The notes beneath the pieces are model-generated. The model did not search any database, was not told the origin of the DNA, and saw nothing but the letters and a program-made list of their open reading frames with translations. A stretch of 64,000 nucleotides of DNA from positions 2,249 to 66,248 of the IMG/VR virus record IMGVR_UViG_3300027886_000005. One strand, written 5' to 3'. Source of the stretch: a virus. Lineage: Duplodnaviria > Caudoviricetes. Positions 6,448 through 57,467 of this stretch are shown in pieces. The position numbers and the translations under genes were made by a program. Position 1 is the first letter of the stretch, and every line of letters begins with the position of its first letter.

Positions 6448-6467
6448 GCTGGGAACATCTTAGCATG

Positions 6468-6725
6468 TCAGAACGGGATGTCGTCCGGCTCCACGTCCTT
6501 GTCGAGGATCTCGAACACGTCGATCATGCCCTTCAGGGCGCCCTTCAGCGCCCGGAGCTGCCGCCACGACCTCTCGGACAGCGTGCCGTCGCCGTGGCCG
6601 CCGGCGGACTTTGGGCGCTGCGCCTTGCCGAGCAGCAGCCGCGCCCGCTCGTGCATGAGCGACAGGTCGTTCATGGAGAACGGGGCCCGCGCTACCAGGT
6701 CGGTGAAGCTCTCGTCGTCGGTCAC
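6468..6725 (-). CDS. Small protein ending in an SSB-type acidic tail (EPDDIPF)
   Basis: C-terminus DVEPDDIPF; start overlaps the ATPase stop. Confidence 0.7.
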   Translation of the reverse strand: MTDDESFTDLVARAPFSMNDLSLMHERARLLLGKAQRPKSAGGHGDGTLSERSWRQLRALKGALKGMIDVFEILDKDVEPDDIPF

Positions 6726-7924
6726 GACTCACCTGCCCGCTCGGCCAGGTTGCGGAGGCACAGCTCGAACACGAGCCCGGCGTCGGGGCTGCCGTCGTAG
6801 CCGCGCGCGCGGCCGCCGGGGAGGTCGGCGGTGCGCTCGGCGAACTCCACGTGGCCCGGCGTCTCGCTCGGGTGCATGCCCGCGACCGGTTCAGGCCACG
6901 GCACGTCCGGGCTCCACACCCGCGGCACGCGGTCGAACTCGGACAGCCACCCGTCGCCGCCCTGGCGCTTCGGCCAGAGGACGGCGCCGAGCCCCGGGTA
7001 CCGGCCGCGCATCGTCACCGCGCCGAACGTCACGTCGCGGCCCGGGGCGTTGACGTTCGAGAGGTTGGCGTCGCCGGTGAAGTCGGGGACGTCGCCGTAC
7101 GCGTGCCAACAGATGTTCGCCTTCGCGTGCAGCGTCGCCCAGAGGTCGCTGTACGGGGTCACAAGCTTGCCGGCCTCGAGCGTCTTCGGGGCCCCGAAGT
7201 CGGGCGCCTCGCCGACCGCGACTTCCCGGGACTCCTTGTCGGACTTGACCAGTTGGATCTGCGCCCGGGTGTGGACGGCGACGCAGACGACGACGCCGCG
7301 GTTCCGGACGGACACGCCGGACAGCGCGTCGACGAAGTCCTGGGCGGGCCCCGTGGCGAGCGCGGCGACCCGCTTCTGGTCGTTCTCCAGGTCGCGCCCG
7401 TCGACGCTGACCTTGCCCTTGCGGTCGCCGCGGGCCGCCTCGCGCACGGCGGTCTTCTGCGCGCGCAGGAGCGTGCTCGCGGATTCGACGGCGACGCCGC
7501 CGATCGGCAGGTGATCATTCTCGGTCGACGACACCGGCGGTGGCGCGTCCCCGACGCGCGGCTTGGTCAACATCCACCTGCTGGCCTCGACGCTATGCCG
7601 GGCGATCCTCCCCTCGCGCAGGGTGAGCGGCGGCCGGCCCTCAGGGAACACGACGGCGAGCACCGCCTTGGCCTCTTCGAAGTCGGCGACCGGCCACGTG
7701 AGGCACATGGACTCGTCGCTGATGACGGGCCCGGCGGTGCCCTCGGTGGACGACTCGACGACGAGGAGGAGGAACGGGGCGACCGCGGGAGTCCCGTCGG
7801 GCCAGCGGGACGACATGAGTCGCATCATCTGCTCGGTCTTGCCGTTGTTCCCCTGGCCCGTGAAGATGAAGAAGAGCGACCCGGGAAGGGGTCGCCGGGT
7901 CGCGTTCGATTGAGTGGTGTTCAT
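6722..7924 (-). CDS. P-loop ATPase, Sak4/AAA_24-like recombinase
   Basis: Walker A GQGNNGKT, LLVVES strand, VAVES Walker-B-like motif; recombination context. Confidence 0.7.
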   Translation of the reverse strand: MNTTQSNATRRPLPGSLFFIFTGQGNNGKTEQMMRLMSSRWPDGTPAVAPFLLLVVESSTEGTAGPVISDESMCLTWPVADFEEAKAVLAVVFPEGRPPLTLREGRIARHSVEASRWMLTKPRVGDAPPPVSSTENDHLPIGGVAVESASTLLRAQKTAVREAARGDRKGKVSVDGRDLENDQKRVAALATGPAQDFVDALSGVSVRNRGVVVCVAVHTRAQIQLVKSDKESREVAVGEAPDFGAPKTLEAGKLVTPYSDLWATLHAKANICWHAYGDVPDFTGDANLSNVNAPGRDVTFGAVTMRGRYPGLGAVLWPKRQGGDGWLSEFDRVPRVWSPDVPWPEPVAGMHPSETPGHVEFAERTADLPGGRARGYDGSPDAGLVFELCLRNLAERAGES

Positions 7925-7934
7925 CGGCGACATG

Positions 7935-8150
7935 TTAGCATGTGTCGCAGTCGCACAGCCGCATCAACTCGCTACGCATGGCGTCCTTGAACATGTAATG
8001 GTGCACGGTAAAAGCGCGTTCATGCCATGACTTGACCATATGCCGATGACCAGGCCGCGAATGCGAGACGGCCTCCATCACCACGTCATCGCCAACCAGG
8101 AAAGTTCGGACGTCATGTCGTCAGCAAAACTGCGCCCATTGGTCACGCAT
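7935..8150 (-). pseudogene. 72-codon reading frame interrupted by TGA at codon 10
   Basis: MRDQWAQFC*RHDVRTFLVGDD...CDCDTC*; ATG overlaps the upstream gene end and the TAA is the next gene's -10 box. Confidence 0.35.
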
Positions 8151-9495
8151 ACGCCGCCGCCTCCGTCTCCCTTGCGGCCTCGCGGGCGTCCCTCGCGTCC
8201 TCGGCGGCCTGCCGCAGGGCCTCCGCGACCGAGTGCGTGCCGAGGCTCGACTGGCACGGGACGCTCACCGGGCAGCCCCACGGGCGCACGCACGGCGACC
8301 CGGCGTAGTTCTGCAGGTGCCGCGCCGGGGTGACGCCGCGGAGCGCGAGCGACAGCGGGCCCTCAACCCCGACGATCACGTCGCGCACGACCTCTCGGCA
8401 GACCTGCGGGTCGGCGCGCACTCGTTTGACGACCACGGGTCGGTGGGCCCGCAGCGCCTCGACCATGCGACGGGCGTCGGCCTCCTCGGCGACGGAGAGC
8501 ATCGGCTGGCTCCGGAACCGGCGCCCGCCCGCGTCCCTGGAGGCGATGGACTGGCGCAGGTCGTGGCGGCGCTGGGCGAGCAGCCGGTGCGCCTCGGACC
8601 AGACCTCCGCGGTGACCATGCCGCCCGCGTCGCCTATGCGGGACAGGTCCCGCGTCGGCAGGCCGTGGGTCGTGACCAGGTCCCGTGCGCCGCGTCCCGA
8701 CGCCGCGTCCATGAAGTCGTCGACCGTCAGCCATCCCCCGGCGTACACGTTGACCTGGCGGAACTCGAACCCGCCCGGCGACTGCATCCCGAGCGCGCGC
8801 AGGATCGTCAGGTACCACGCGCCCTGGCGGTCGGGGAGCAGGCTCGCCCCGCCGGGTTCCCCCGCGCCGCCGAGGTCGGGCCGCTGGCGGAACTTGTAGT
8901 CGACGATCGCCGTGACGCCGCCTGGCCCATCGGGCAGGTACACGAGGTCGGGCTGGCCCTCCATGCCGTCGAAGCGGCACATGACTGCGGAGCAGTGTGT
9001 GACGTCCGACCACCCACGCGACATCGCGGGGCCGTCCTTAAACGCCCACGCGACCTTGTTCCATGGCGCGTGCAGGCGCACCTCTGCGAGCGGTCCGCCG
9101 GTGCAGGAGTAGAGGTCCGGCACCAGGCACGCGTCGTCGAGGCCCATCTCGCGCGCGACGAGGTCGGCGGCCGCCTCCGCCTGGGCGATCCCGCCCTCCC
9201 ATCCGTCCGGCCACCGTCGTCGGGCAGCCTCGGCCTCGGCCGCCGCGGCCGGGTTCCGCCGCTCGCCGCGGTGTCGGGCCGTCACGCGGTCGGCCAGGAT
9301 CGCGTGGCCGATGCTGCCGACCTGCTGGCGCGGCGACTCGTCGCCAGAGTCACGCAGGCCGAGGATCCACTGGGAGTATGCCCGCACCCCGCAGGCGAGC
9401 CAGTCGCCGCCCTCGGACTGGCTCAGGAACCGCACGACGTCGACGTCGTCACCACGCGGCGCCGGGCCGCTCACCATCACAGGAAGTCTTCGCAT
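8143..9495 (-). CDS. PD-(D/E)XK (RecB/Cas4-like) exonuclease
   Basis: LSQS..DWLAC, GSIGHAIL, GQPDLV, IVDYKF, C-terminal C..WGC...C. Confidence 0.8.
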   Translation of the reverse strand: MRRLPVMVSGPAPRGDDVDVVRFLSQSEGGDWLACGVRAYSQWILGLRDSGDESPRQQVGSIGHAILADRVTARHRGERRNPAAAAEAEAARRRWPDGWEGGIAQAEAAADLVAREMGLDDACLVPDLYSCTGGPLAEVRLHAPWNKVAWAFKDGPAMSRGWSDVTHCSAVMCRFDGMEGQPDLVYLPDGPGGVTAIVDYKFRQRPDLGGAGEPGGASLLPDRQGAWYLTILRALGMQSPGGFEFRQVNVYAGGWLTVDDFMDAASGRGARDLVTTHGLPTRDLSRIGDAGGMVTAEVWSEAHRLLAQRRHDLRQSIASRDAGGRRFRSQPMLSVAEEADARRMVEALRAHRPVVVKRVRADPQVCREVVRDVIVGVEGPLSLALRGVTPARHLQNYAGSPCVRPWGCPVSVPCQSSLGTHSVAEALRQAAEDARDAREAARETEAAAYA

Positions 9496-9518
9496 TGTCG
9501 AATGCTAGCACGGCGGCC

Positions 9519-11266: not shown

Positions 11267-11855
11267 GGCGAGACGACTCCTTGATGCCGCGGGCCAGTCC
11301 CTCGAGCCCCTGCTCCGTGCGCGACAGGACGTCGACAAGTCGGCCGATGATGCTCCCGGGTGTCGGGGTGACAGCCGACCGCAGCGACAGGGCGGCGACC
11401 TCCAGCCGCCGCTCCGTCAGCCGCACACGCGACTCGAGCTCGGCGATGCGCCGGTCGATCTCGTCGAGGCGCTCGGTGGTCGTGGGCGGGATGAGTGCGC
11501 CGGGGATGTGGCCCGTGGTGGCGACGGTAACGTCGTCGACCTGCAGGTCCTGGGGCAGGAGCGCGTCGCGGTCGCGGCGGAGCGCGGAGACGGCCTTGAC
11601 GATCTCCCGGCGGCCGGTGCCTGGGTTCAGGCGAGCGCCCGCGGCCATGGCGCTGTCATCTGTGAACCTGTCGAGGTTGTCGAGCGCATCCATGAGGGCC
11701 TCCGCTCGGTTGTTACGCTGGGTGATGGCGGCGACCAGTTCGTGCCTCAACTGCCCGATGCAGTCGGCCGCCTCCTTCAGGTCGGAGGAGAGAACCGGTC
11801 GGTCGTGTTGGGTGTACGCGCGCAGTCGCGCGACGATGTCGGGCTGGTCTTTCAT
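11259..11855 (-). CDS. Hypothetical coiled-coil protein
   Basis: ORF behind TGC-TAAGGT-7nt-ATG. Confidence 0.6.
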   Translation of the reverse strand: MKDQPDIVARLRAYTQHDRPVLSSDLKEAADCIGQLRHELVAAITQRNNRAEALMDALDNLDRFTDDSAMAAGARLNPGTGRREIVKAVSALRRDRDALLPQDLQVDDVTVATTGHIPGALIPPTTTERLDEIDRRIAELESRVRLTERRLEVAALSLRSAVTPTPGSIIGRLVDVLSRTEQGLEGLARGIKESSRRG

Positions 11856-11963
11856 CCCGGACACCTTAGCACGCGACAAGGTAGCGTGTCGCTGACACGT
11901 CTCCACCCCACCCAACCACCCACCCACGAAGGCCGGACGATTTCTCTTGACGACCGGCCACCT

Positions 11964-12078: not shown

Positions 12079-12318
12079 ATGTCGAGACGGATCGACCACG
12101 ACAAGGTCAGGGCCGAAGCAGACCTGAAGCCCAAGCGCACCGTCGTGCGGGACTCCAAACGGGACGCCGTCGTCATCTCCGCGCGGTCCCGCCCGAGCGT
12201 CGACGAGATGGTCGCGGACGTCGCCCGCGCCCGCGCCCGCGAGGCGACGTCGGCTGCGGCTTCGACCGGGCGAAGCGTCCTCGACGACCTCGACGAGGAC
12301 GAGGGCGCGACATGCTAG
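12079..12318 (+). CDS. Hypothetical protein
   Basis: GGAGG Shine-Dalgarno before ATG 12079. Confidence 0.6.
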   Translation: MSRRIDHDKVRAEADLKPKRTVVRDSKRDAVVISARSRPSVDEMVADVARARAREATSAAASTGRSVLDDLDEDEGATC

Positions 12319-12327
12319 GATGCCCGC

Positions 12328-12564
12328 ATGCACAACCTTGAGGCGGTGAAGCGGTCATTGGCCGCGTGGACGGACGACGACCTGGACGCGCTGCGCAGAC
12401 ATCGCAGGTCCCTCGGGTTCCGGGCCTTTGCGTGCATGCATGAGGACCTGTGCGTCTTCCTATCAGGCGCTGGGTGGAACCCGGCGGCTGGCCCCGTCGG
12501 CCTGGCTGAGTTCCTGAGCGACGACGTCGTCGCCACCATCCCAGGCGTGGACCTCTTCGACTGA
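12328..12564 (+). CDS. Hypothetical protein
   Basis: TGC-TAGGAT-6nt-ATG. Confidence 0.6.
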   Translation: MHNLEAVKRSLAAWTDDDLDALRRHRRSLGFRAFACMHEDLCVFLSGAGWNPAAGPVGLAEFLSDDVVATIPGVDLFD

Positions 12565-15550: not shown

Positions 15551-15594
15551 CTAATGGCGGGCCACCCGCGCGTGAACATGCTAAGGTGTCTCCC

Positions 15595-15762
15595 ATGCCC
15601 AACGTCAACATCATCGAGGCAACTGACCCGAAGGACAGGCCAACTGAGGTCGTGGCCCAGCTCCGCGACATCGCGGAGTGGTTGCGGGCGGAGGGCGAGC
15701 CGGAGATCGCTGCAGGCCTCGACGAGGTTGTGGACGACATCGTCTCGATGTACGAGCTATAG
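15595..15762 (+). CDS. Small hypothetical protein with its own promoter
   Basis: GAACATGC-TAAGGT-GTCTCCC-ATG. Confidence 0.6.
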   Translation: MPNVNIIEATDPKDRPTEVVAQLRDIAEWLRAEGEPEIAAGLDEVVDDIVSMYEL

Positions 15763-19818: not shown

Positions 19819-20568
19819 GTGGCCGCCCGCCCCCGCCGCGCCCACGCTCCCGCCGTGCCCCTCGTGCGAGACGAAGACGGACCGCTCCAGCCGGGCCTCC
19901 CGGGCGTCCTGCCAGAGGAGGCGCCGCTCCCGTCCGAAGTCGTGCTTGACGGCGGGGTCCTCGACCGGCGCCGCCGCGAGGCCCTCGCCGCGATCCGGGC
20001 GACGCTACTCGAAAGGCCTGAGGACTTCACCCCAGAGGAATGGCGCGTCGTCGTCGCCATGTTGGCGCCACCGACCGCTCACCTCGGCCGCCGGCCCGGC
20101 ACCGCCGCCGCGCGCTACGGGGTCGTCCAGACGGCCCGCGACTGCTTCCCCCACCTGGGCTCCACCCAGGCCGTCGCCCGCTTCCGCGAGGCCCAGGCGC
20201 GCCCGCACGTGGCCGCCTTCGTCGCCGACATGCGGGCGCTCGAGCTCGTCGACGTGCTCGACCAGCGCGGCCCGGTGCGCGAGCGCCTGTGGCAACTCAT
20301 CCGGCTGGCCGACGCCGTCGACCCGCTCGTCGCCGTGGACCCTGAGGCGGGCTCAAACCACGTCCGCGCCGCGGCCGTCGCCGTCCAGGCGATCAAGGTG
20401 CTGGTCGACATGGACGCCCTGCACGTGACCCCAACGGAAGTCGCCTCGCTGACCACGACCGCGTCGGCCAAGGACGAGGACGTCGCGGGCCTGTCTGACA
20501 AGGTCGCGCAGGTGGCCCGCGTCGCCGAGGATCTGCGGGCGAGGCGGCGGGAACGGGCGGGCGTATAA
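19819..20568 (+). CDS. Probable terminase small subunit
   Basis: Helical protein upstream of terL; call is by position only. Confidence 0.45.
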   Translation: MAARPRRAHAPAVPLVRDEDGPLQPGLPGVLPEEAPLPSEVVLDGGVLDRRRREALAAIRATLLERPEDFTPEEWRVVVAMLAPPTAHLGRRPGTAAARYGVVQTARDCFPHLGSTQAVARFREAQARPHVAAFVADMRALELVDVLDQRGPVRERLWQLIRLADAVDPLVAVDPEAGSNHVRAAAVAVQAIKVLVDMDALHVTPTEVASLTTTASAKDEDVAGLSDKVAQVARVAEDLRARRRERAGV

Positions 20569-20584
20569 TGCTATCATGCCCGTA

Positions 20585-20833
20585 ATGGCTACCACCCGCG
20601 AAAAACTCATCGAGTCCGGCCTGTTCAGGGAGACGACCTCGCGCGACCTCGTCGCCGATTTCCCCGAGAACGAAAATGATAACATCCGCATGACGCTCGA
20701 GTTCGATTCATTCGGTGACCTCGTCCACCTGAGTGCGTGCATCGTCAGCAAGCCACTCGCAGAGATGGTCGCCCAGAACCGTCGCGCGCTCGGCCTTCCT
20801 CCGCAGCACAGCGTCGAGGCAGGCCACCTCTAA
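20585..20833 (+). CDS. Inserted hypothetical gene between the putative terS and terL
   Basis: TGC-TATCAT-7nt-ATG. Confidence 0.6.
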   Translation: MATTREKLIESGLFRETTSRDLVADFPENENDNIRMTLEFDSFGDLVHLSACIVSKPLAEMVAQNRRALGLPPQHSVEAGHL

Positions 20834-22714: not shown

Positions 22715-22954
22715 TCAGTCAGCGCTGGGTTCTGGCGTGGCCCAGTAGGTGGGGCTGCACTCTACGATGACCCTCCACTTGGTGATGGCGCTGGCTTCGT
22801 CTCGCACGCTGATGCGGCGGCCATGCTCAAACATGCTGTCGCACTCGGCCTGCTCCGCCCATCCTTCAGCGGCGTCGCTCTCGCAGGCTGCGATGATGAC
22901 GACCGAGTCGTCGATGGTTTCACACTCGTCGTCCCACACGATGAAACTGGGCAT
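22715..22954 (-). CDS. Inserted hypothetical gene
   Basis: TGC-TACCAT-6nt-ATG. Confidence 0.6.
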   Translation of the reverse strand: MPSFIVWDDECETIDDSVVIIAACESDAAEGWAEQAECDSMFEHGRRISVRDEASAITKWRVIVECSPTYWATPEPSAD

Positions 22955-23022
22955 GTGGACATGGTAGCACGCGCGAACACGTTACCTTGTCGCTCGCCGC
23001 CCGACGCGCCACACTGCATCTC

Positions 23023-23436: not shown

Positions 23437-23474
23437 ACGCAGGTCACGCGCGGACGTGCTATCCTGTCTGCGTC

Positions 23475-23966
23475 ATGACCGCCCGCAAGAGAGCCGACCG
23501 CCTCGCCAAGATCACGTGCCCCCGCCAGGCCGCGGTGGCGAGGGCCGTCAGTCCGATCCTCGACGTGTTCTCCACCGGGTTCGCCAAGATGGGGCCGGAC
23601 GAGCGGCTCGCCGCGTTCGTGCCGGCGGACGACTACGCGGCCAGGTGGCGCAACGCGGTGCGCATGCCCGCGCTGGGGATGGTCGCGCGCCTGGGCCGGG
23701 ACCTGGGGCTCGGCACCAACGAGCTCCACGGCGACGCGAAGCTGCGCGGCCGGACGCAGGTGCCCGAGCTCGCGGGCATCAACAGGACGACGCTCCTGAA
23801 CGCGCTGTGGATCTGCGACGCGATGCTCGAGGACCAGGCTGACATGCCGGCGCTCGCCCTCGCCCGCTACACCACGATCCGCTCGCGCGCGCAGGCGGAG
23901 GTCCGGTCCGAGCGGTCGCGCAACGAGTGCGAGTGCTCCGCGTGCTCGAAGGAGCGCGCCGCATAG
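23475..23966 (+). CDS. Hypothetical protein, possible regulator
   Basis: Class-A promoter; C-terminal CECSAC; directly upstream of the sigma gene. Confidence 0.55.
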   Translation: MTARKRADRLAKITCPRQAAVARAVSPILDVFSTGFAKMGPDERLAAFVPADDYAARWRNAVRMPALGMVARLGRDLGLGTNELHGDAKLRGRTQVPELAGINRTTLLNALWICDAMLEDQADMPALALARYTTIRSRAQAEVRSERSRNECECSACSKERAA

Positions 23967-23981: not shown

Positions 23982-24022
23982 GAGACATGATAGCTTGACT
24001 CTCGTGCGGCGTCCTGTAGTGT
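23982..24022 (+). promoter_or_regulatory. Operator plus sigma70-type promoter of the phage sigma gene
   Basis: GAGACA-TGATAGCT-TGACTC; TTGACT-16nt-TAGTGT-7nt-ATG. Confidence 0.65.
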
Positions 24023-24029
24023 GCATCAC

Positions 24030-25235
24030 ATGCACGCCAGATTGCCCGCCGCCATGACGCACCACCCGATCTTCTCCGCCGAGGAGGAGCACGCCGCGTT
24101 CACCTCGATCCACGAGGCCCGCGTCGCCGCCTGGCTCGCCGTCCTCTCCGACCGCAACCTCGCCCCACGCTGCCTTCCACCGACCACTCCGGGGCTCGCC
24201 GAGCACGTGGTCTGGGACGCCGCCCGCGAGGCCGCGGTGATGCGGCCCGTCCGCGCCACCCTCGCCGCCGCCGCGTGGTACGCCGAGCCGCTGGCCCGCC
24301 GCCTCGCCGCCGACGACATGTCCTGCGAGGGGCTCTTAGCCGCCCGCGCCGTCGTCGGCCGCCTCGCCGCCCGCCGCTCCACGTCCCCCGCCTGGGTCCG
24401 CCAGGTCGGCGCCGCGATGGCCCGGCTCGCCGCCGCCGTCGACCACGTCGAGCGCCACAACCTGCGCCTCGTCGTCCAGCAGGCCTCCCGCCATTCCCAC
24501 CGCTGCAGCGCCCTCACGCTCCACGACCTCGTCGGCTACGGCGCCCTGGGCCTGCGGATGGCCGTCCTGCGCTTCGACGTCTCCCGCGGCCTGCGCTTCT
24601 CGACCATGGCCACGCACTGGATCAGCCACCCGATCCGCCGCGCGATCCAGGACCGCCGGTCGACGATCCGCGTCCCGGTGCACATGCAGGAGCGCATGGC
24701 CAAGGTCGCCCAGGCCCGGCGCGTGCTGCTGAACGCCACCGGCGAGGAGCCGACCGTCGAGCGGCTGGCGGAGGCCACGGGCGAGCGCGACGTCGCCGGG
24801 GTCCTCGAGGTCCTGCACATGGGCGGCGAGGCGGTGTCGATCGACGCCCCGACGTGGCGGGACGACGGCTCCACGGAGGCCATCCGCGACTCGCTCGCGG
24901 ACGTCGGAGCCCCGACGCAGGACGAGGTCGTCCACGACCGGGAGCGACGGGGCCTCGCCGCGCGCCTGCTCGACGCGCTCGACGACCGCGAGCGGTTCAT
25001 CGTCGAGGCGCGGTGGGGGATGCTGGGCGGAGAGGAGTCCTCATACAAGGACCTCGCCGACGTCCTGGGCGTCACGCGCCAGCGCGTGCAGCAGTTGCAG
25101 GAGGCGGCCATGCGCCGGCTCCGGGCTGCGGCAGACCGCATTGACGATCCCTCTCCGCGGAGGCCCGCGCAGAACGTCGCCCCCGCACACCGCCCGACGT
25201 TCTCGCCGGGCGTGCAGGTGCAGCTGGCGCTGTGA
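24030..25235 (+). CDS. RNA polymerase sigma-70 family factor (RpoD/RpoS-like regions 2-4)
   Basis: NLRLVV, DLVGYGALGL, FDVSRGLRFSTMATHWI, IRVPVHM, VSIDAP, LGVTRQRVQQLQEAAMRRLR. Confidence 0.92.
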   Translation: MHARLPAAMTHHPIFSAEEEHAAFTSIHEARVAAWLAVLSDRNLAPRCLPPTTPGLAEHVVWDAAREAAVMRPVRATLAAAAWYAEPLARRLAADDMSCEGLLAARAVVGRLAARRSTSPAWVRQVGAAMARLAAAVDHVERHNLRLVVQQASRHSHRCSALTLHDLVGYGALGLRMAVLRFDVSRGLRFSTMATHWISHPIRRAIQDRRSTIRVPVHMQERMAKVAQARRVLLNATGEEPTVERLAEATGERDVAGVLEVLHMGGEAVSIDAPTWRDDGSTEAIRDSLADVGAPTQDEVVHDRERRGLAARLLDALDDRERFIVEARWGMLGGEESSYKDLADVLGVTRQRVQQLQEAAMRRLRAAADRIDDPSPRRPAQNVAPAHRPTFSPGVQVQLAL

Positions 25236-27499: not shown

Positions 27500-27506
27500 G
27501 GAGTCC

Positions 27507-36877: not shown

Positions 36878-36894
36878 CCTGCTACCATGTCCCA

Positions 36895-37062
36895 ATGCGA
36901 CCCATCGACCCCAAAGAAGTACGCCTCGCCTGGCAATTCGTGACCAACCATCTCCTGAACGAGATGAGCGCCGGCGAGCCAGAAGGCCGGGCCGCCCTCG
37001 ACACCATGGAGCACGCGGTCGGCGTGCTGCTCGGCATGTTCCCGGAGGACGACGGGGAGTGA
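36895..37062 (+). CDS. Inserted small gene
   Basis: TGC-TACCAT-6nt-ATG. Confidence 0.55.
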   Translation: MRPIDPKEVRLAWQFVTNHLLNEMSAGEPEGRAALDTMEHAVGVLLGMFPEDDGE

Positions 37063-37762: not shown

Positions 37763-38173
37763 ATGGGTCTCGCCGCCTACCTCCCGCTCGAGCAGGTCTA
37801 CACGTTCCATGAGCCCGCCGAGCAGTGGATCCTGAGGCGGTACGCGCCCGGCACGGGCCTCGCCGCTGGGGCCGAGCGGACGACCACGACGTACGCGTCG
37901 AGCCCGATCGCGGTGTTCAGGGACAGGACGGCCAAGCGCACCGGGAATCAGGACTCTGGCCAGACCGGGCCGGCGACCTGCACGGTGTACACGCGCACGC
38001 GGCTGCGCACGGCCAGCGACGCGCAGGGAACGCCGCAGCCAGCCGACGTGCTCATGGACCCGAAGACGGGCAACGTGTGGCAGGCGACGGCGTCGGGAGA
38101 CTGGGACGAGGCGCGCGGATTCGCGGTGACGATGACGCGGCAGGGGTCCGTGGGGACGCCGCCGTGGTCGTGA
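37763..38173 (+). CDS. Head closure/stopper-like protein
   Basis: Position; beta-rich; TAGCCT-6nt-ATG. Confidence 0.55.
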   Translation: MGLAAYLPLEQVYTFHEPAEQWILRRYAPGTGLAAGAERTTTTYASSPIAVFRDRTAKRTGNQDSGQTGPATCTVYTRTRLRTASDAQGTPQPADVLMDPKTGNVWQATASGDWDEARGFAVTMTRQGSVGTPPWS

Positions 38174-38190
38174 CGCGCTAGAATGCTGGC

Positions 38191-38406
38191 ATGGGCATGG
38201 ACAGCAGAGGCAATTGGGTTCCCGATCCGCGGCCGATCGAGGAACAGGTCTTCAAATCCGTCATGGTCGGTCCGCACTACGTCCGTTCGGAAATCATCAC
38301 GAACCACGTCGGCGAAGTCGCCGTCATGGTGAACGGGTCGTTGACGTGGTGCAGGCCGGCCTCGCTTGACGAGGTCGTGTCATCGCGGATGCCGGTCGTG
38401 GCATGA
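38191..38406 (+). CDS. Inserted small gene
   Basis: GCGC-TAGAAT-6nt-ATG. Confidence 0.55.
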   Translation: MGMDSRGNWVPDPRPIEEQVFKSVMVGPHYVRSEIITNHVGEVAVMVNGSLTWCRPASLDEVVSSRMPVVA

Positions 38407-38885
38407 GCCTTCTCGCCATCATCGCCTGCGCCCTGTCGCTCGGCCCTGCCGACGCCACGCGCCTCGCGTGCCGCCTGGAGCACTGGCCGGACTGCGGCGA
38501 GGTCCTGGCGATCTTGCGGGTCGAGTCCCGCGGAGTGGCGGTCGGCGTCCACACGCGGCACCACGCGCGCGTCCGCGGGACCGTGTTCTGGCGGCGCGCG
38601 GTCAGGGCCGGGCTGCTCCACCCCGATCGGTGTGCACGGCACCAGTCGACCGACCTCGGCGAGGGATGGGGCATCCGCGGCCCGCACGGCCTCGCCGCGG
38701 CGTACTCGGTCCACGTGCTCGGCAACTGCGTCGGACCCGAGGCGGCCGACGTGCCGCTGCTGTCGGCGGTCATGACGGTCAGGCGCTTGCGCGTCCTGCG
38801 GGACAGGTACGGCCTGCTGGCGGCGGACGCGCGCGCGGAGGCGTGGCGCAAGGGCGTCGGACATGCTAAGATCCATACAGAATGA
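38403..38885 (+). CDS. Exported lytic transglycosylase-like protein
   Basis: Hydrophobic N-terminus; AILRVESRG resembles the SLT catalytic motif. Confidence 0.45.
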   Translation: MSLLAIIACALSLGPADATRLACRLEHWPDCGEVLAILRVESRGVAVGVHTRHHARVRGTVFWRRAVRAGLLHPDRCARHQSTDLGEGWGIRGPHGLAAAYSVHVLGNCVGPEAADVPLLSAVMTVRRLRVLRDRYGLLAADARAEAWRKGVGHAKIHTE

Positions 38886-39928: not shown

Positions 39929-40414
39929 CTAGCCGTCGCCGTCCATATGCGAGCGCTTCGCGGCCTCGAACCTCTCTGGCGCGATCTTTCGCAGCGCCTC
40001 GGCGTGCTCTTGGCGGACGCGCTCGATCTTCTCCCTCGCATCGACGTGGACGGATCGGATGGCCTCATCCGCCCTGCAGCGCACCTCGTCCTCATCCATG
40101 GTCGGCAGGTGCAAGAGGGCGCCTGCGAGGCGCCAGAGGCTCTCGGCGTCTCTTCCGACTGCCACGCGGGCCACGACGATGCGCAGGACGTGCGCTGCGA
40201 GGCTTGGTTGGACAGCGGCGTCGACCTCGCCATGAATGCATCGCGCCGCCGACCTGACGGCCACGTGATCATCTGAGCGATCTGGCAGAAGGGCTGCGAC
40301 CTCACGCGGGTCTGCGGCGCTTCGGATGTCGTCCTCGTCGAGGTTGGTCCCGATCTCGTCGGCGAACTCGAGGTGATGGGCGAGAAGGTGTAGGACGATG
40401 GCAGATCGATCCAT
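39929..40414 (-). CDS. Inserted hypothetical gene (antisense)
   Basis: TGC-TACCAT-6nt-ATG. Confidence 0.55.
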   Translation of the reverse strand: MDRSAIVLHLLAHHLEFADEIGTNLDEDDIRSAADPREVAALLPDRSDDHVAVRSAARCIHGEVDAAVQPSLAAHVLRIVVARVAVGRDAESLWRLAGALLHLPTMDEDEVRCRADEAIRSVHVDAREKIERVRQEHAEALRKIAPERFEAAKRSHMDGDG

Positions 40415-40491
40415 GGGCGCATGGTAGCACGCCGGGCCCGCCTACCCTCTCCACGCTGGCGCCGGACCTGGGCGCCGAGGAGACCTCGCCC

Positions 40492-42585: not shown

Positions 42586-42794
42586 TCGTCGCCCTTGGCC
42601 TTGGCCTCGGCCTCCTTCCGCTCCCGCCACGTCGGCGTGATGGTCCCGCCGAGGTTCTTCCAGATGAGGCGCAGGCAGGCCGCGACATCCTCGGGGTCCA
42701 TCGGCATGTTGTCGTAGGTGGCCTCGAGGATGCGCTGGACGTGGTGGTTGAAGTCGCAGTCGTCCTCGGACGTGATCGTCATCTTGATGGGCAT
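42582..42794 (-). CDS. Inserted small gene (antisense)
   Basis: TGC-TACCGT-6nt-ATG. Confidence 0.6.
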   Translation of the reverse strand: MPIKMTITSEDDCDFNHHVQRILEATYDNMPMDPEDVAACLRLIWKNLGGTITPTWRERKEAEAKAKGDD

Positions 42795-42831
42795 GCGGTC
42801 ACGGTAGCATGTCGCACGTACCCTCGCCGCG

Positions 42832-43793: not shown

Positions 43794-44757
43794 GGAGGGA
43801 CATCTGCTCGGCGGCCCGAGGCTGCGGCGACGGGTCCACGGCGGCGGCCACCGCCTGAGGCCACCCTGCAGCCGCCTCCTCCGCCGCGCGCTCGCGGGCG
43901 ATGTCGGCCCAGCGTCGACCGTCGCGCTCGCGGGCTCCGAGGTCACCGCCGATGAATCCGCAGCCGTGCCGGGCGGCGACGATGGCCGTGGTGCCGGAGC
44001 CGACGAATGGGTCGCAGGCGAGGCCGCCGGGCGGGCAATAGCTCAGTACTTGAACCTCGGCGATATGCCTCGTGAACGGCGCAGGATGGTCTGGGTCCGA
44101 TATTTCCTTGTTCACAGTTGCACCTCCAGCGGCGGCGGTTATTGCCGTCGTAAGCATACGGGTGGCTGCATAGACCATGGCTTTCGACTCCGCCGACTTC
44201 TTACCAAGCCACATATTCGCAGTTGGACGCCTGGAGCGACCTTGCCCCGCGGACAGTGCCGGTTTCGTTACAGCCCTGGCATCAAAAAAACCTCGACGCC
44301 CAGGGCGTTGAAAAACGTGCATCGGCTCCCATCCCGAGCGTCTTCGCGGCGAAACGTCTCCAGGCATTCCATCACGCAGATACGCCTCATGTTCCACGAA
44401 GCGGAGGCCGACGCGCTCGGCCCAATCGATGGCCAACCTGAACGCGATGAGCGAGCGCTCGCTACCAATCTGCCTCGACCTCGTGAACCGCACCGGGCCG
44501 TCGACGATGACGATGCAGAAGCCGCCGGGCTTGAGCGCGCGATAGCAGCAGTCGCCTAGCCGCTGGTAGTCCTTCCACAGGAAGTGCTTGGGTGCGTCGC
44601 CGCCGTAGCGCCGCGTCGGCGCACCCTCGCGGCCCTTGGCCCCGGGGACTTCCGTGGGGTACGGGGGCGAGAAGAACAGCAGGTCGACGCCGCCAAGCTC
44701 GACGCATCGTGCGAGGGTCTCCTCGAAGCTCCTGTGCTCGATGTCGATGAGCGGCAC
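43783..44757 (-). CDS. DNA methyltransferase (SPPY; probably N4-cytosine)
   Basis: FFSPPYP, DHPAPF, CDPFVGSGTT. Confidence 0.85.
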   Translation of the reverse strand: MPLIDIEHRSFEETLARCVELGGVDLLFFSPPYPTEVPGAKGREGAPTRRYGGDAPKHFLWKDYQRLGDCCYRALKPGGFCIVIVDGPVRFTRSRQIGSERSLIAFRLAIDWAERVGLRFVEHEAYLRDGMPGDVSPRRRSGWEPMHVFQRPGRRGFFDARAVTKPALSAGQGRSRRPTANMWLGKKSAESKAMVYAATRMLTTAITAAAGGATVNKEISDPDHPAPFTRHIAEVQVLSYCPPGGLACDPFVGSGTTAIVAARHGCGFIGGDLGARERDGRRWADIARERAAEEAAAGWPQAVAAAVDPSPQPRAAEQMSLLTA

Positions 44758-44794
44758 TGGGGCAGGTTAGCATGCCCGACGGTACCCTCGCCGC

Positions 44795-47612: not shown

Positions 47613-48437
47613 CTACTCGCCCAGCGCCTCGCGGATCTCCTGGGCGCTTCGCTGGAGGAGCGCATCCTCGAATGCCTTGGCCCGGTGCTGCGCCTCGTTC
47701 CTCGCCCCCAGCGCCTCGGAGGTCTCCCGGACGAGGTCGTCGCACCGCGCGTGGACCTTGGCAAGGTCCTCTCGTTGCTTGGCGATGATCGCGTCCTTGT
47801 CGGCCATCATCTTCGTCATGTCGGCGATGAGTCGCTCCTGGTTGGCGACCTCGACGTTGAAGTCGTGGACGCGGGCGCCGACGTGGTCGCGCATCTCGTC
47901 GTCGGTCCCGGCCGCGCCGGCGAGGCCGTTGGCCCACGCGCGCCAGGCGAGCAGGTCGTTCGCGGAGGCGAGCAGGGACTCGCGTTCGTTGTCGATGTAG
48001 CGGTCGCCAGCCGAGGCGGAGGCCTCCGCCGCGAGCAGTTCTCGCTTGACGTTGTCGTAGGCCACCGCGAAGGCCGACTCGCTGTCCAGGAGACGTGAGG
48101 CGGCGCCCCAGAGCGCCTCGGCCTCCCGGCGCATGGCGTCGCCGCGGATGAGCAGTGAGGCGGCCACGTCGGCGAGGCGACGGGCGACGGCGGTCGTGGC
48201 CCGCAGGTGGGCCTCGCGGCCGTTCGTTACGTCGTCGAGCAAGACGTCAAGGATGACATCGGCGTCGGACTGGTCGTGTCCGGTGACCGGCCAGAGACGC
48301 GCTGCCTCGCCGTGGTCGACGGCGAGCGCGACGCCGTCAGCCAGAGCGAGCAGGTCGGCGTCGTTGGGGTGGGACTCGACGCGCTCGCGGAGGAGGTCGT
48401 CGAGGGCGGCGAGGATGAGTGGGGTGCGGTCGATCAT
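47613..48437 (-). CDS. Inserted coiled-coil hypothetical protein (antisense)
   Basis: Behind a perfect dyad/-10 box at 48442-48461. Confidence 0.65.
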   Translation of the reverse strand: MIDRTPLILAALDDLLRERVESHPNDADLLALADGVALAVDHGEAARLWPVTGHDQSDADVILDVLLDDVTNGREAHLRATTAVARRLADVAASLLIRGDAMRREAEALWGAASRLLDSESAFAVAYDNVKRELLAAEASASAGDRYIDNERESLLASANDLLAWRAWANGLAGAAGTDDEMRDHVGARVHDFNVEVANQERLIADMTKMMADKDAIIAKQREDLAKVHARCDDLVRETSEALGARNEAQHRAKAFEDALLQRSAQEIREALGE

Positions 48438-48441
48438 GGCT

Positions 48442-48461
48442 GAGACAGCTTAGCATGTCTC
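48442..48461 (-). promoter_or_regulatory. Dyad operator containing the extended -10 box
   Basis: GAGACA-TGCTAAGC-TGTCTC. Confidence 0.7.
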
Positions 48462-49313: not shown

Positions 49314-49358
49314 CATGGGCGATTGCACCGCCGGACGAGACATGTTAGCGTGTTTCGT

Positions 49359-49622
49359 ATGACCACTCACGCAATCGATCCCACGACGAAGGCCGCTCGG
49401 TGTGCCTCGTACATCTACCAAGGCGACCAAGAGTACGTATGGGTCACCTGCCGGGCGTGCCTGCGCATGCTCGATGAGTTCGAAGGCGGATCCGTCGTCG
49501 AGCAAGTCCCGCCGCGAGCAGCCTTCGTCAACACCGGCGCCGAGCACATGCCGATCGGCCTCGGCTATCACCTGCTCCACCTCCAGCACCTCGCCGCCTG
49601 CGGGGAGAGGGACGAGTCGTGA
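49359..49622 (+). CDS. Inserted small gene
   Basis: GAGACATGT-TAGCGT-GTTTCGT-ATG. Confidence 0.55.
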   Translation: MTTHAIDPTTKAARCASYIYQGDQEYVWVTCRACLRMLDEFEGGSVVEQVPPRAAFVNTGAEHMPIGLGYHLLHLQHLAACGERDES

Positions 49623-50019: not shown

Positions 50020-50406
50020 GTGCCGACGTCCGTCCCCACCCGCCGCCTCGAGTTCGCCAGGTCCGCCTGGGACACGCTGGCGTCGGGCGCCGTCGTGCTC
50101 GACCCCAACGGGTCGCGGTACCTCATCCGCATGCGCTGGCTTCCGGTCGCCGAGTCGTGGGCCCTGACGCTCCTGCTCACCTCGGGGGCCGTCGTCGTCC
50201 ACAACGCCGCCGTCCGCGACCGAACGGATTGCCTCCTGGGAGTGTCGACTACGGGGCGCCCCGTCGGCGCCATCATCTCGTACGACCCCAAGGGCCGCGG
50301 CGACCCGACTCTCACGTCGTTCTCGCAAGGCGGCGTGGGCCTGTACTACCTCCCGGGCGGGTTCGTCCCGCACGACTTCAGCCTGTACAACACGGACGTC
50401 GCGTAG
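50020..50406 (+). CDS. Baseplate plug-like protein
   Basis: YLIRMRWLPVAESWALTL...LYYLP. Confidence 0.65.
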   Translation: MPTSVPTRRLEFARSAWDTLASGAVVLDPNGSRYLIRMRWLPVAESWALTLLLTSGAVVVHNAAVRDRTDCLLGVSTTGRPVGAIISYDPKGRGDPTLTSFSQGGVGLYYLPGGFVPHDFSLYNTDVA

Positions 50407-50426
50407 CGACATGCTAGGATGGTTGC

Positions 50427-50750
50427 ATGTCCTACGACATCTGGCTGGAAGCGGACCTCGGCGGCAACAAGCCGTACGTGATCGACGAGAACCACAACCA
50501 CACGAGCAACACGTCGCGCATGTGGTCCGCGGCCGGGGCCGACCTCGCGGAAATGGACGGCCTGCCCGCGGGCGAGTGCATCCCACTACTGGAGCGGGCC
50601 GTCGCCGACATGGACGCCAGGCCTGAGTTCTACGCCGCCATGAACCCGCCGAACGGATGGGGCAGCAACGAGACGTGTCGGGCGTTCCTGTCGTCCTTGC
50701 TTGATTTCTTCCGCAAGGCCCCGCGGGCGAAGGTCGTCGTCAGTCGGTGA
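50427..50750 (+). CDS. Inserted conserved phage protein (MSYDI...NHTSN...MNPPNGWG type)
   Basis: Recognisable phage motif; class-A promoter. Confidence 0.65.
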   Translation: MSYDIWLEADLGGNKPYVIDENHNHTSNTSRMWSAAGADLAEMDGLPAGECIPLLERAVADMDARPEFYAAMNPPNGWGSNETCRAFLSSLLDFFRKAPRAKVVVSR

Positions 50751-51857: not shown

Positions 51858-51877
51858 GAGACATGCTAGGATGTCTC
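51858..51877 (+). promoter_or_regulatory. Dyad operator containing the extended -10 box
   Basis: GAGACA-TGCTAGGA-TGTCTC, ATG at 51880. Confidence 0.7.
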
Positions 51878-51879
51878 CC

Positions 51880-52428
51880 ATGCAGAGACACGTGATCGAG
51901 CTGGTGGCCGCGCGCGCGGCCGAACTCCTGGGCGAGTGGATCGGCCTGAGCCCATTCGCCAAGAGCGACAACGGCGACGAGAGCAGCGTCGGCGGCTTGG
52001 CCATGGTCCTCGGGGCCATGCTCGCCGCGAAGGCTCCGCCGCCCCCACCGGATGCCGTCGAGCGGATGCGCGACCACATCCTGGCGGACATCGCTGGCAG
52101 GGCAAAAAACGGACAGGTCATGCGGATGACGTACGACGTGGACTACGGCCCAGGACGAGAATTGTCCAGGTTGGCGGAGTCGTGCGAGATCAAGTCGTCC
52201 TGGCCCATCAAGTCGCACCTCACGATCTATCTCCACCATAGCAAGACGTCAATCTACAACAAACGCAACTACGGTGCCGAGGGCCTGACGCACTACCTCA
52301 TCGACGGGCGCGGGTGGATCGTCAGCCCCAGCACCATCGACGCCCGGGTGCTGCCGATCGTCCTCGCCGCCATCGACCGCGGCGATGTGAGCCCAGACGT
52401 GGCGCGGCTGGAGCCGTTCAAGACCTGA
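51880..52428 (+). CDS. Inserted hypothetical gene
   Basis: Leaderless start behind the dyad. Confidence 0.65.
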   Translation: MQRHVIELVAARAAELLGEWIGLSPFAKSDNGDESSVGGLAMVLGAMLAAKAPPPPPDAVERMRDHILADIAGRAKNGQVMRMTYDVDYGPGRELSRLAESCEIKSSWPIKSHLTIYLHHSKTSIYNKRNYGAEGLTHYLIDGRGWIVSPSTIDARVLPIVLAAIDRGDVSPDVARLEPFKT

Positions 52429-53208: not shown

Positions 53209-53228
53209 GTGACATGCTAAGGTGTCAC
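53209..53228 (+). promoter_or_regulatory. Dyad operator variant with compensatory arms
   Basis: GTGACA-TGCTAAGG-TGTCAC, GTG at 53231. Confidence 0.7.
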
Positions 53229-53230
53229 CT

Positions 53231-53458
53231 GTGAAGCGCATCAAACAAATCATCGAGTCACTCAAGGTCATTTCCGACAAGCCGTCGAAGACCATCGCCG
53301 ACATGGCTGACCGCGTCTTGTCCGACGCCGGGGGTATGGACGCGGAGGTTGAGGCGAATGCCTCCGCGGAGGACCTGCGCCTGGTCAAGAACATCCTTCT
53401 GGCCGTCGTCCGTCTCGCCGAGGACATGGAGAAGCCGGTCGCGGAGGCGAAGTCGTGA
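53231..53458 (+). CDS. Inserted small gene
   Basis: Leaderless start. Confidence 0.55.
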   Translation: MKRIKQIIESLKVISDKPSKTIADMADRVLSDAGGMDAEVEANASAEDLRLVKNILLAVVRLAEDMEKPVAEAKS

Positions 53459-56328: not shown

Positions 56329-56586
56329 CGCGACGTGCTAGGATGTCTCCCATGCAGTCATACGCGCAGCGCATCAGCGACCTCATCACAGGCCAGGGCC
56401 AACACTGGAGCCCCACGACCGACGTCGAGTCGTGTTTCTTCTCCATCAATCAGGTGGATGTCGAAGGCGACAAGGTCGTCATCTCGACCGGCACCGGCCA
56501 GATCGTGCTCGACTGCCACGAGTCGACGTTCATGGACGAGCGGACCCGCCTCGTCGAGGAGCGCGTCCGGGCGTCGATCGTCCCGT
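56310..56586. repeat. 17-bp direct repeat GGCGTCGATCGTCCCGT flanking an inserted gene
   Basis: Copies at 56310-56326 and 56570-56586. Confidence 0.8.
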
Positions 56587-56588
56587 AA
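56352..56588 (+). CDS. Inserted small gene
   Basis: TGC-TAGGAT-7nt-ATG. Confidence 0.6.
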   Translation: MQSYAQRISDLITGQGQHWSPTTDVESCFFSINQVDVEGDKVVISTGTGQIVLDCHESTFMDERTRLVEERVRASIVP

Positions 56589-56606
56589 CCCGCTAGGGCA
56601 TCATTC

Positions 56607-56783
56607 ATGCAAGAGAAGTCATCGGGCGACATAGCGATCAGCATTGCGGACGCGGTCGGAATCGTCGGGGTCGTGGTGGCATTGGCCTTCCTGTTCGCGG
56701 AGGTCGCGGCGTGGTGGGTGGCAGCACTCGCTGCCCTGGCGGTGGGATTCGCGCTGTTCGCGGTTCGTGCAAGGGTCCACTGA
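56607..56783 (+). CDS. Small two-TM membrane protein
   Basis: MQEKSSGDIAISIADAVGIVGVVVALAFLF...VRARVH. Confidence 0.5.
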   Translation: MQEKSSGDIAISIADAVGIVGVVVALAFLFAEVAAWWVAALAALAVGFALFAVRARVH

Positions 56784-57449
56784 ATGCCGATCTTCCGCCA
56801 GTTCGTCGAGCGCCTGTCGCCCCTCGTCCCGTCCGTCCTCCGCAAGAAGACGCCGGTCGTCATCGACGACATTGGGGCGACCACGTCGTCGAACATCCTC
56901 AACCTGGCGCTGGTCGTCGGGTGGCAGGTGCTCGACGCGCTGGGCGAGGCGCTCGAGGAGCAGGCGGAGGTCTCGCACCCGCTGGCCACCGCGTCGGGCT
57001 GGGTGCTGGACCAGCACTGGGGCCCATTCCACAACCTGCAGCGCAACGGCCAGAGCGACGCTGACTTCCGCCTGTACACGCAGGCCAAGCGCATGCTCAT
57101 GCGCTCGTGGGGCGCCGCCGACCAGGCGATCGAGATCTTCAAGTTCCTCCTGCCCGCGGCGACGGTGACGTGGACCCCGTTCTACCCGAAGAACTGGGTC
57201 ATCAACATCACCGGGGTCCCTCTTGCGGACGCAGCCAAGGCGGTGTTGTTCATGACGAAGCAGCCGTCGCCCGCCGGAGGAGGCTTCTCCGTCTGCGGCG
57301 ACAACGGCCTCGCCACCATCGCGGACCCAGTCGTCTTCTCGTACTCGTCGGTCCACGGCCCGGTGCCGACGAGCGTCGGGTGGTACTCGTCGGTCCACGG
57401 CGCGAGCGGTTCGGCGGAGGCCGGGTGGGCGCATGTCGCCGGCATCTGA
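56784..57449 (+). CDS. Baseplate wedge/tail protein I-like
   Basis: Follows baseplate J; ASGWVLDQHWG...SDADFRLY. Confidence 0.7.
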   Translation: MPIFRQFVERLSPLVPSVLRKKTPVVIDDIGATTSSNILNLALVVGWQVLDALGEALEEQAEVSHPLATASGWVLDQHWGPFHNLQRNGQSDADFRLYTQAKRMLMRSWGAADQAIEIFKFLLPAATVTWTPFYPKNWVINITGVPLADAAKAVLFMTKQPSPAGGGFSVCGDNGLATIADPVVFSYSSVHGPVPTSVGWYSSVHGASGSAEAGWAHVAGI

Positions 57450-57467
57450 CGTGCTATCATGTCTGCC

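Follow-up and report, generated by a model that had tools for sequence, protein, structure and literature searches.

Putative leaderless, −35-less extended −10 promoters recur at about 25 sites in a contig of an uncultured high-GC phage

This analysis concerns a stretch of 64,000 nucleotides, here called the window, which covers bases 2249 to 66248 of the 66,248-base IMG/VR record IMGVR_UViG_3300027886_000005. The window is a siphovirus-like, high-GC contig (GC content 72%) of an uncultured phage. About 25 sites in it carry the sequence TGC-TAnnnT, or a close variant, mostly a few nucleotides before a start codon. These sites, designated class A, probably make up one phage promoter class without a −35 element, from which transcription would start at the start codon. 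A sequence-only reading of the window had already described them as leaderless promoters with an extended −10 box. This part of it is well supported by the sequence: the T, A and T of the hexamer are invariant, TG is present, ATG or GTG stands at a fixed distance and relatives have orthologous sites. The same reading placed the boxes inside dyad operators for one dimeric regulator, a claim that fared less well.

The class A motif and its distance to the start codon

The pattern (T/C)G(C/T)TAnnnT was present at all 25 coordinates given by the sequence-only reading. The motif TGCTANNNTG was observed 22 times in the window, where 1.03 copies would be expected, and in 100 dinucleotide shuffles that count was never reached. 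A position weight matrix (PWM) built from the sites gave 44 matches in the window compared with about 0.9 in Markov-1 controls; the extra matches were only reverse reads of the same near-palindromic sites and dyads over −35 boxes, and no independent new site was found. The conserved positions in the alignment are G-19, A-18, C-17, R-16, T-15, G-14, C-13, T-12, A-11, n, n, a, T-7, G-6, T/C-5 and C-4. T-12, A-11 and T-7 each occur at 25 of the 25 sites, which were picked on the TAnnnT pattern, and TG occurs at 24 of 25 (T 24/25, G 25/25). The start codons give independent backing to the orientation of the sites. There is no sign of a −35 box: the information content from −45 to −10 was about 0 bits in the window and likewise in four relative clades.

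The distance to the start codon is strand-specific and nearly constant. The window has 25 exact copies of TGCTANNNT, and 23 of them are followed by ATG or GTG at a distance of 4–9 nt. In the list of 25 sites, hexamer and start codon are 6–7 nt apart at 18 and 8–9 nt apart at 6. Open reading frames (ORFs) of at least 55 aa with a coding-like GC content at third codon positions (0.76–0.99) are opened by 22 of them. The exceptions are the sites at 34806 (tRNA-like RNA), 38864 (22 codons) and 57452 (39 codons). The predicted starts are all ATG or GTG and none is TTG, and the spacer is too short for a Shine-Dalgarno sequence. In mycobacteria, leaderless translation needs ATG or GTG at the 5' end, which also suffices for it, while TTG fails, and leaderless genes are common in Actinobacteria (PMC4633059). 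Five class A sites serve genes that are reversed within the virion module and therefore need a promoter of their own.

Two other readings of the motif were dropped. A sigma-54 promoter (GG-N10-GC) was rejected because no GG is conserved 10–11 nt upstream of the GC, and TAGGAT was not taken as a Shine-Dalgarno sequence, since AGGA is missing from most hexamers (TACCAT, TAACAT, TATCAT).

Conservation of class A among relatives

No relative was found among GenBank phages (50,697 records), either by portal or by 7.9 kb of DNA (window 40400–48300), or in IMG/VR searched with the single portal protein. The phage family was not found described in literature searches. Relatives were recovered by alignment of portal homologues, which yielded three IMG/VR records (L073 to L075, 42–47% portal identity) and 33 metagenome loci, among them L078 (93%) and L079 (77%). 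An exact-motif scan of IMG/VR (GACATGCTANNATGTC) gave 64 single matches, which were dismissed as chance because all of them lay in low-GC contigs.

The arrangement TGCTAnnnTG, 5–7 nt, ATG recurs in all clades that carry both sigma genes, with 16–33 class A copies per 50–69 kb record compared with 3–6 for a control pattern. The family-wide consensus is G-19, C-17, R-16, TGC, TAnnnT, G-6 and C-4, and relatives with 42–93% portal identity have CR-TGC-TAnnnT-G before start codons. Orthologous sites are also kept at 42–47% portal identity. Class A precedes the orthologue of a 712-aa sigma-like gene in L073, L074, L075, L078 and L079, its position directly after the orthologue of gene g234 is kept in all clades, and the site before a reversed small gene after the portal gene is found at the orthologous place in relatives. 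The class A design is most likely common to a whole family of uncultured phages with sigma factors of their own.

Dyad symmetry of the class A sites

The class A consensus approximates a 16-bp palindrome, GACATGCTAGCATGTC. The sequence-only reading had reported dyad-symmetric flanks with compensatory variants. The flanks themselves are real, with 7 occurrences of GACA-N8-TGTC where 0.88 would be expected, but the compensatory variation did not hold up. When right halves were dealt among the sites by permutation, 77 complementary arm pairs were observed against 76.4 expected (P=0.48), and the outer three arm pairs gave 28 against 30.2. Only perfect 6/6 arms were slightly raised (3 vs 0.76 expected, P about 0.03). 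Half of the symmetry comes with the promoter consensus: the upstream half of the extended −10 element, CATGCTA, is TAGCATG (hexamer plus G-6) read on the other strand. The conservation is asymmetric and −10-like: TGC, T-12, A-11 and T-7 do not vary, whereas the positions opposite them in the dyad are degenerate. Arms are nearly absent from six to eight of the 25 sites. Each dyad encloses TAnnnT in one register, and the one dyad found apart from a promoter corresponds to chance level. As a dispersed lone half-site, TGTCTCY is weakly enriched (19 vs 12.9 expected). The operator of a dimeric repressor would have both half-sites conserved and sites independent of promoters; neither was observed.

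Comparison of orthologous sites gave the same picture. The core and left flank are kept, and the right arm drifts while the left shows no corresponding change; GTCCCC, GCCACC and GTCATG are the forms of the right arm at the sigma-like gene orthologues. Ahead of the reversed gene, it is the left arm that shifts in orthologues, from GGCAcg to GGCGcg. The GACA/TGTC arms are confined to the window, L078 and L079; in the remaining clades the left arm is gGCG, and different sequences stand on the right. Arms without covariation, their absence from relatives that keep the core and orthologues that lose the symmetry uncompensated all weigh against one dimeric regulator acting at all sites. Most of the dyad symmetry is inherent in the promoter consensus. 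Class A promoters may also carry a superimposed operator specific to this clade.

Putative class C promoters, the 20-bp dyad and its candidate binders

A second promoter type, class C, has a different layout: an AT-rich stretch, a 20-bp dyad GAGACATGATAGCTTG(T/A)CTC, a 17-bp spacer, TAGCTT or TAGTGT, 7 nt and ATG or GTG. The −35 hexamer (TTGTCT or TTGACT) sits in the right arm of the dyad. Three such promoters lie on the plus strand. At 23982..24032 the dyad GAGACATGATAGCTTGACTC overlies TTGACT and is followed by TAGTGT and, after 7 nt, by ATG 24030 of the 401-aa sigma gene. At 27458..27509 the perfect dyad GAGACA-N8-TGTCTC overlies TTGTCT, with 17 bp to TAGCTT and 7 nt to ATG 27507; this promoter leads a 62-aa gene and then small genes up to the portal gene. 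The same perfect dyad over TTGTCT, with 17 bp, TAGCTT and 7 nt, is found at 59079..59130 before GTG 59128 (90 aa). The sequence-only reading had put the dyad over five −35 boxes. It holds for these three, and the sites at 1015 and 63616 are single arm matches. The latter two belong to a direct repeat, 94% identical, at both window ends (1009–1399 and 63610–64000), each copy of which has a promoter with one dyad arm. As the copies have diverged, the repeat cannot be ascribed to overlapping ends in the assembly.

The 20-bp dyad GAGACATGATAGCTTGTCTC is identical in the three window promoters, in three promoters of L078 (one of them flipped) and in one of L079, and the spacers and −10 boxes beside it diverge in L078 and L079. 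This identity among close relatives, in either orientation, makes a regulator site plausible there and is the best evidence that a protein may bind the 20-bp class C dyad. By way of the class C dyads, the best class A dyads are plausible regulator sites too. Their GA/TC arms match those of class C, and a clade-specific DNA-binding protein may repress both classes.

Among the candidate regulators that the sequence-only reading had offered, the one at 23475..23966 (g163, plus strand) held up in so far as its product has a predicted DNA-binding fold. The gene lies just upstream of the 401-aa sigma gene. The predicted structure (mean pLDDT 84) resembles DnaA domain IV over the whole domain in four entries of a wide VIA search (Z 7.0–7.9, rmsd 2.7–3.5 Å, 93–102 residues), the next unrelated structure scoring Z 4.4; Foldseek against the PDB gave no significant match. 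The protein is 98% identical in L078, and it is conserved in relatives, where it gains a Lys-rich N-terminal tail. On the strength of the predicted fold, g163 is the best candidate binder of the dyad. The candidate at 27698–27895 (65 aa), winged-helix-like by eye, has no counterpart in L078, which has identical dyads. The third, at 9519–10424 (minus strand), is related to the DnaA DNA-binding domain by Pfam (Bac_DnaA_C), as g163 is by predicted fold; no sequence similarity between the two was detected.

Several features of these operons were noted in passing. A small acidic protein (84 aa in the window) with a DDLDFAML motif (window 27899–28153, L078 9523–9723, L079 about 610–819) is the only gene of the pre-portal class C operon kept in the window, L078 and L079; L078 and L079 lack counterparts of its neighbours (62, 65 and 98 aa). 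Searches of Pfam, PHROGs and NCBIfam left the small proteins of the class C operons, and most of the genes that class A precedes, without a match, and no repressor or integrase was found among the scanned proteins. In L078 the 712-aa sigma-like gene is a single 802-aa ORF (7001–9409, minus strand) with an in-frame insert of about 90 aa. The opposite strand of the insert (7975–8230, plus) holds a class C cassette with the flipped 20-bp dyad and a 68-codon ORF.

Putative class B promoters

The pattern TA(C/G)CCT-CGCCsC-GTG, designated class B, occurs at about 15 window sites between 2314 and 61387 (e.g. 28459, 30737, 36161, 44783, 48693 and 61375). It precedes the genes for the portal (28471–30411), the DUF2213 head protein (30749–32428) and the tape-measure protein (44795–47611), together with about 12 other virion or late genes. 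It is kept before orthologous genes even in relatives with 37–43% portal identity, and it is conserved in the most distant loci, L096 and L103. Class B is a predicted second class of leaderless promoters.

Sigma genes and the reader of class A

Two sigma-like genes face each other stop to stop, at 24030–25235 (plus strand) and 25236–27374 (minus strand). The first encodes a sigma-70 family protein of 401 aa with Pfam regions 2, 3 and 4 and is a candidate reader of class A. Its nearest solved structures are Streptomyces HrdB and Mycobacterium SigA (PDB, E about 1e-35), and its orthologues are syntenic in relatives. The second encodes a 712-aa protein with a weak match to region 2 only and is a candidate reader of the virion promoters of class B. 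The 401-aa sigma gene always lies behind a TTGACA-type promoter, in all clades, and the 712-aa gene always lies behind class A. In L073, L074, L075 and L089 the sigma gene is preceded by TTGACA, 18 bp, a weak −10 box, 6 nt and ATG, with palindromes of their own nearby. Those of L075 (5530–5570, 9625–9645 and 4995–5010, GCTGGCATGCCAGC) lie at sigma-gene promoters, as does that of L073 (3410–3435), where TGACA-N8-TGTCA surrounds TAGAAT.

The 401-aa sigma keeps the residues that align with the TG-reading H455 and E458 of E. coli. In the same numbering, it carries the substitutions Y430M, W433H, Q437H and T440R, and His at 437 is found in 4 of 6 orthologues. The sigma of the window and of L078 has TRQRVQQ where relatives have the −35-reading RERxRQ.

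Two lineages lack a recognisable 401-aa sigma. In L096 the syntenic place is too small for it, and a match was not found in L103. They have 2 and 0 class A sites, respectively, in about 21 kb each, which is no excess, and keep class B and the 712-aa-type gene. In 40 Actinomycetes genomes, three of which (G018, G035 and G039) are unpublished, the full motif was not enriched (24 vs 42 control matches). Cluster names gave no host for the phage. In the metagenome-assembled genome (MAG) that holds L076 and L077, 8 of 9 motif matches fall within the first 2.5 kb of contigs, as on the 1.3–2.5 kb phage fragments L076 and L077 themselves. Extended −10 promoters need neither a −35 contact nor sigma domain 4, and for this reason the host sigma is a possible reader of class A (PMC3950348). 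Class A would thus be read by the phage 401-aa sigma or by the host primary sigma, and the sequence features given here make us lean slightly towards the phage protein.

Proposed promoter programme and alternative explanations

In the preferred reading, the extended −10 element (C-17 R-16 T-15 G-14 C-13, TAnnnT, G-6) would make transcription begin with the first base (A or G) of the start codon, and class A would yield leaderless mRNAs. From the three classes we infer a three-tier programme. Three to five host-type −35/−10 promoters of class C would drive the HrdB/SigA-type phage sigma and some small genes. Class A, read by the 401-aa phage sigma or by the host primary sigma without its −35-reading domain, would drive the genes for replication, recombination, terminase and methylase, together with the 712-aa sigma-like gene and many small inserted ones. 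Class B (TAsCCTCGCCsC-GTG) would drive the virion genes. In its fullest form, the scheme comprises about 45 promoters in about 62 kb, nearly all leaderless, which would pass control from the host sigma to the HrdB-like sigma (TGC-TAnnnT-G) and then to the 712-aa sigma (TAsCCTCGCC), while in this clade the DnaA-domain-IV-like protein would bind the palindromic arms and silence classes A and C together. Taken as a whole, this form is unlikely.

Some observations weigh against a reading in terms of promoters and phage sigma factors. RNA polymerase alone explains neither the 16-bp near-palindrome, nor the outer pairs G-19/C-4 and C-17/G-6, which are kept in all clades, nor the class C dyads of 20 bp, which are conserved and independent of orientation. 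The canonical −35-reading RERxRQ, which would be needless for −35-less promoters, is retained by the 401-aa sigma of four relatives. The co-occurrence of this sigma with class A rests on two sigma-less lineages of about 21 kb each. Binning points to no single host: related contigs were grouped with a MAG of Nannocystis as well as with one of Actinomycetes.

The near-palindrome could instead reflect one dimeric phage regulator that binds GACA-N8-TGTC over the roughly 25 −10 boxes and over three to five −35 boxes, and that switches the whole set together, as a repressor for immunity or at an early-to-late switch. This is possible, if somewhat doubtful. It would account for the 16-bp consensus, the excess of GACA-N8-TGTC and the slight surplus of perfect arms. 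The 20-bp dyads that stay identical while the adjoining spacers and −10 boxes diverge are in its favour, as are the flipped copy in L078, which is what a symmetric site would lead one to expect, and the palindromes that other clades have at their sigma-gene promoters. So is g163, with its predicted DNA-binding fold and its near identity in the dyad-sharing L078. DnaA domain IV, however, binds as a monomer to an asymmetric 9-mer. The arms also do not covary, orthologues alter one arm alone, and several sites are nearly armless; relatives with the same core and spacing have no such arms. Dyads that all enclose TAnnnT in the same register, chance-level numbers away from promoters, an invariant TGC half opposite a degenerate mirror and the lack of a repressor or integrase among the scanned proteins count against it as well.

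Another alternative, also possible and also rather less than probable, is that these are ordinary strong host promoters read by the host primary sigma alone. The consensus would then reflect selection for the strongest −35-independent promoters, leaderless mRNAs would be common in the host, and the phage sigmas would serve other promoters. TGn and TAnnnT with a start codon 6–7 nt further on form a textbook extended −10 leaderless promoter, and leaderless genes are frequent in Actinobacteria (PMC4633059). Extended −10 promoters can do without sigma domain 4, and Thermus phage P23-45 uses them with the host sigma (PMC3950348). The 712-aa sigma-like gene, moreover, must be transcribed before its protein exists. 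Against this, C-13, R-16, C-17 and G-6 are fixed across clades, which is more than TGn promoters require, and the full motif is not enriched in the 40 Actinomycetes genomes. It is also the 401-aa sigma gene alone that always has a TTGACA-type promoter, and the two relatives without this sigma show no class A enrichment. A hairpin in RNA or single-stranded DNA, serving as a processing site, terminator or translation signal on read-through transcripts rather than as a promoter, is very improbable. The best sites could form a stem of 6–7 bp with a loop of 6–8 nt just before the start codon, but the arms are mostly 3–4 bp, and T, A and T are invariant in the would-be loop. Sites also lie before a non-coding RNA (34806) and before reversed genes beyond any read-through. 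This reading was rejected because covariation is absent.

Genes behind the class A sites

On the minus strand in the left part of the window, the site at 6445..6471 (TGCTAAGAT, 9 nt, ATG 6447) precedes a 293-aa gene (5566–6447). The site at 7922..7946 (TGCTAACAT, 7 nt, ATG 7924), before a 400-aa gene, is almost palindromic and scores on the plus strand too. An armless site at 9493..9516 (TGCTAGCAT, 6 nt, ATG 9495) precedes the gene of a PD-(D/E)XK nuclease (8143–9495, minus strand). The site at 11853..11877 (TGCTAAGGT, 7 nt, ATG 11855) leads a 198-aa gene, which is followed by a UDG-like gene and then by a DnaA_C-HTH gene; 15 nt upstream of it lies a TACCTT box flanked by GACA/TGTC.

On the plus strand, 12307..12330 (TGCTAGGAT, 6 nt, ATG 12328) leads a 78-aa gene and then the gene of a 990-aa protein with a DnaB-like helicase part (12578–15550), and 15573..15597 (TGCTAAGGT, 7 nt, ATG 15595) leads a 55-aa gene. 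The site at 20563..20587 (TGCTATCAT, 7 nt, ATG 20585) opens an operon with an 82-aa gene and then the terminase large subunit (20837–22711). The sequence-only reading had assigned the sites to early and accessory genes throughout, which the terminase operon contradicts. A 79-aa gene on the minus strand follows 22952..22975 (TGCTACCAT, 6 nt, ATG 22954). The plus-strand site of g163, at 23451..23477 (TGCTATCCT, 9 nt, ATG 23475), is identical in L078, and the 712-aa sigma-like gene is preceded on the minus strand by 27372..27397 (TGCTACCAT, 8 nt, GTG 27374).

Further minus-strand sites diverge from class B promoters. At 30708..30731 (TGCTAACAT, 6 nt, ATG 30710), before a reversed 101-aa gene between portal and DUF2213, the partner is TACCCT-6-GTG 30749. 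At 42792..42815 (TGCTACCGT, 6 nt, ATG 42794), before a reversed 70-aa gene, it is TACCCT-7-ATG 42832. At 44755..44778 (TGCTAACCT, 6 nt, GTG 44757), before an N6/N4 DNA methylase gene (43783–44757, minus strand), it is TACCCT-6-GTG 44795 of the tape-measure gene. The CATG and CTAG composition showed no link to this methylase. Another reversed gene (161 aa) follows 40412..40435 (minus, TGCTACCAT, 6 nt, ATG 40414), and a 274-aa gene follows 48435..48461 (minus, TGCTAAGCT, 9 nt, ATG 48437), which has the perfect arms GAGACA/TGTCTC.

The class A-type box at 34800..34821 (plus, TGCTACAGT) has a tRNA-like RNA and no long ORF downstream. This RNA (34827–34930) has a good T-arm (GCGGGTTCGACTCCCGC) and a paired 5'/3' stem and was called by neither ARAGORN nor Rfam, which found no RNA gene in the window. 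The remaining sites are all on the plus strand. A 55-aa and then a 166-aa gene follow 36874..36897 (TGCTACCAT, 6 nt, ATG 36895), the site whose place after the g234 orthologue all clades retain. The variant at 38170..38193 (CGCTAGAAT, 6 nt, ATG 38191; 71 aa) has the orthologues TGCTAGGAT in L078 and TGTTAGGAT in L079. The gene behind the box at 38858..38884 (TGCTAAGAT, 9 nt, ATG 38882) is doubtful, as it has only 22 codons. A second variant, at 49337..49361 (TGTTAGCGT, 7 nt, ATG 49359; 87 aa), has the arms GAGACA/TGTTTC. A 107-aa and then a 368-aa gene follow 50406..50429 (TGCTAGGAT, 6 nt, ATG 50427). The top-scoring site is 51858..51882 (TGCTAGGAT, 7 nt, ATG 51880; 182 aa), with the perfect arms GAGACA/TGTCTC, and the site at 53209..53233 (TGCTAAGGT, 7 nt, GTG 53231; 75 aa) has the perfect arms GTGACA/TGTCAC. 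The last two are 56330..56354 (TGCTAGGAT, 7 nt, ATG 56352; 78 aa) and 57446..57470 (TGCTATCAT, 7 nt, ATG 57468), the latter before a 39-codon ORF.

Significance and comparison with known systems

If the preferred reading is true, the window phage would represent a compact natural genome expressed almost wholly from leaderless mRNAs, with three readily distinguished promoter classes and two sigma factors of its own. It would offer defined, short, −35-independent promoters, possibly as orthogonal sigma/promoter pairs, for high-GC bacteria, and a clean system for studying how a near-primary sigma is retuned to a new extended −10 sequence. Each kind of part is already known: leaderless mRNAs and extended −10 promoters as well as repeated operators and the sigma cascades of phages. 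No relative of the family is in culture or in GenBank, and its transcription strategy is therefore undescribed.

Mostly leaderless middle and late transcripts have reportedly been seen in Thermus phage phiYS40. Bacillus phage SPO1 has a sigma cascade of gp28 and then gp33/34. As in the programme proposed here, host-type early promoters drive a phage sigma in SPO1, middle and late promoters form separate classes, and a second sigma gene lies behind the middle class. Unlike SPO1, the window phage would have three leaderless classes, and one near-primary sigma is accompanied by an atypical 712-aa protein, the pairing of sigma and class being predicted.

Thermus phage P23-45 also has TG-extended −10 promoters without a −35 element, which separate phage transcription from the −10/−35 type (PMC3950348). 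In P23-45, which has no sigma, the host sigma is retargeted by the RNA polymerase binders gp39 and gp76 (PMC3950348). The window phage differs in its two sigma-like proteins, in the fixed C-13, R-16 and C-17 and in the near-palindrome.

Among mycobacteriophages, the stoperators of Cluster A and the SAS repeats of Cluster K are likewise short motifs that occur about 25–35 times per genome, mostly at gene boundaries (PMC4351075), and the SAS repeats are tied to start codons as well. Stoperators, however, are asymmetric repressor sites that are oriented with transcription and mostly are not promoters. SAS repeats lie in a leader with a ribosome-binding site, whereas the window motif is itself the putative −10 box of leaderless genes. 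A further parallel is the 17-bp dyad TGTTCGG-N3-CCGAACA of Cluster O, apparently lytic actinophages with more than 30 copies, a predicted dimeric binder and predicted leaderless SigA-type promoters (PMC4351075). In the Cluster O repeats the arms are invariant, and most copies lie apart from promoters and start codons, whereas in the window phage the arms are loose and every copy surrounds a −10 box at a fixed distance from the start codon. Neither P23-45 nor SPO1 nor the motifs of Clusters A, K and O combine the features of the window phage.

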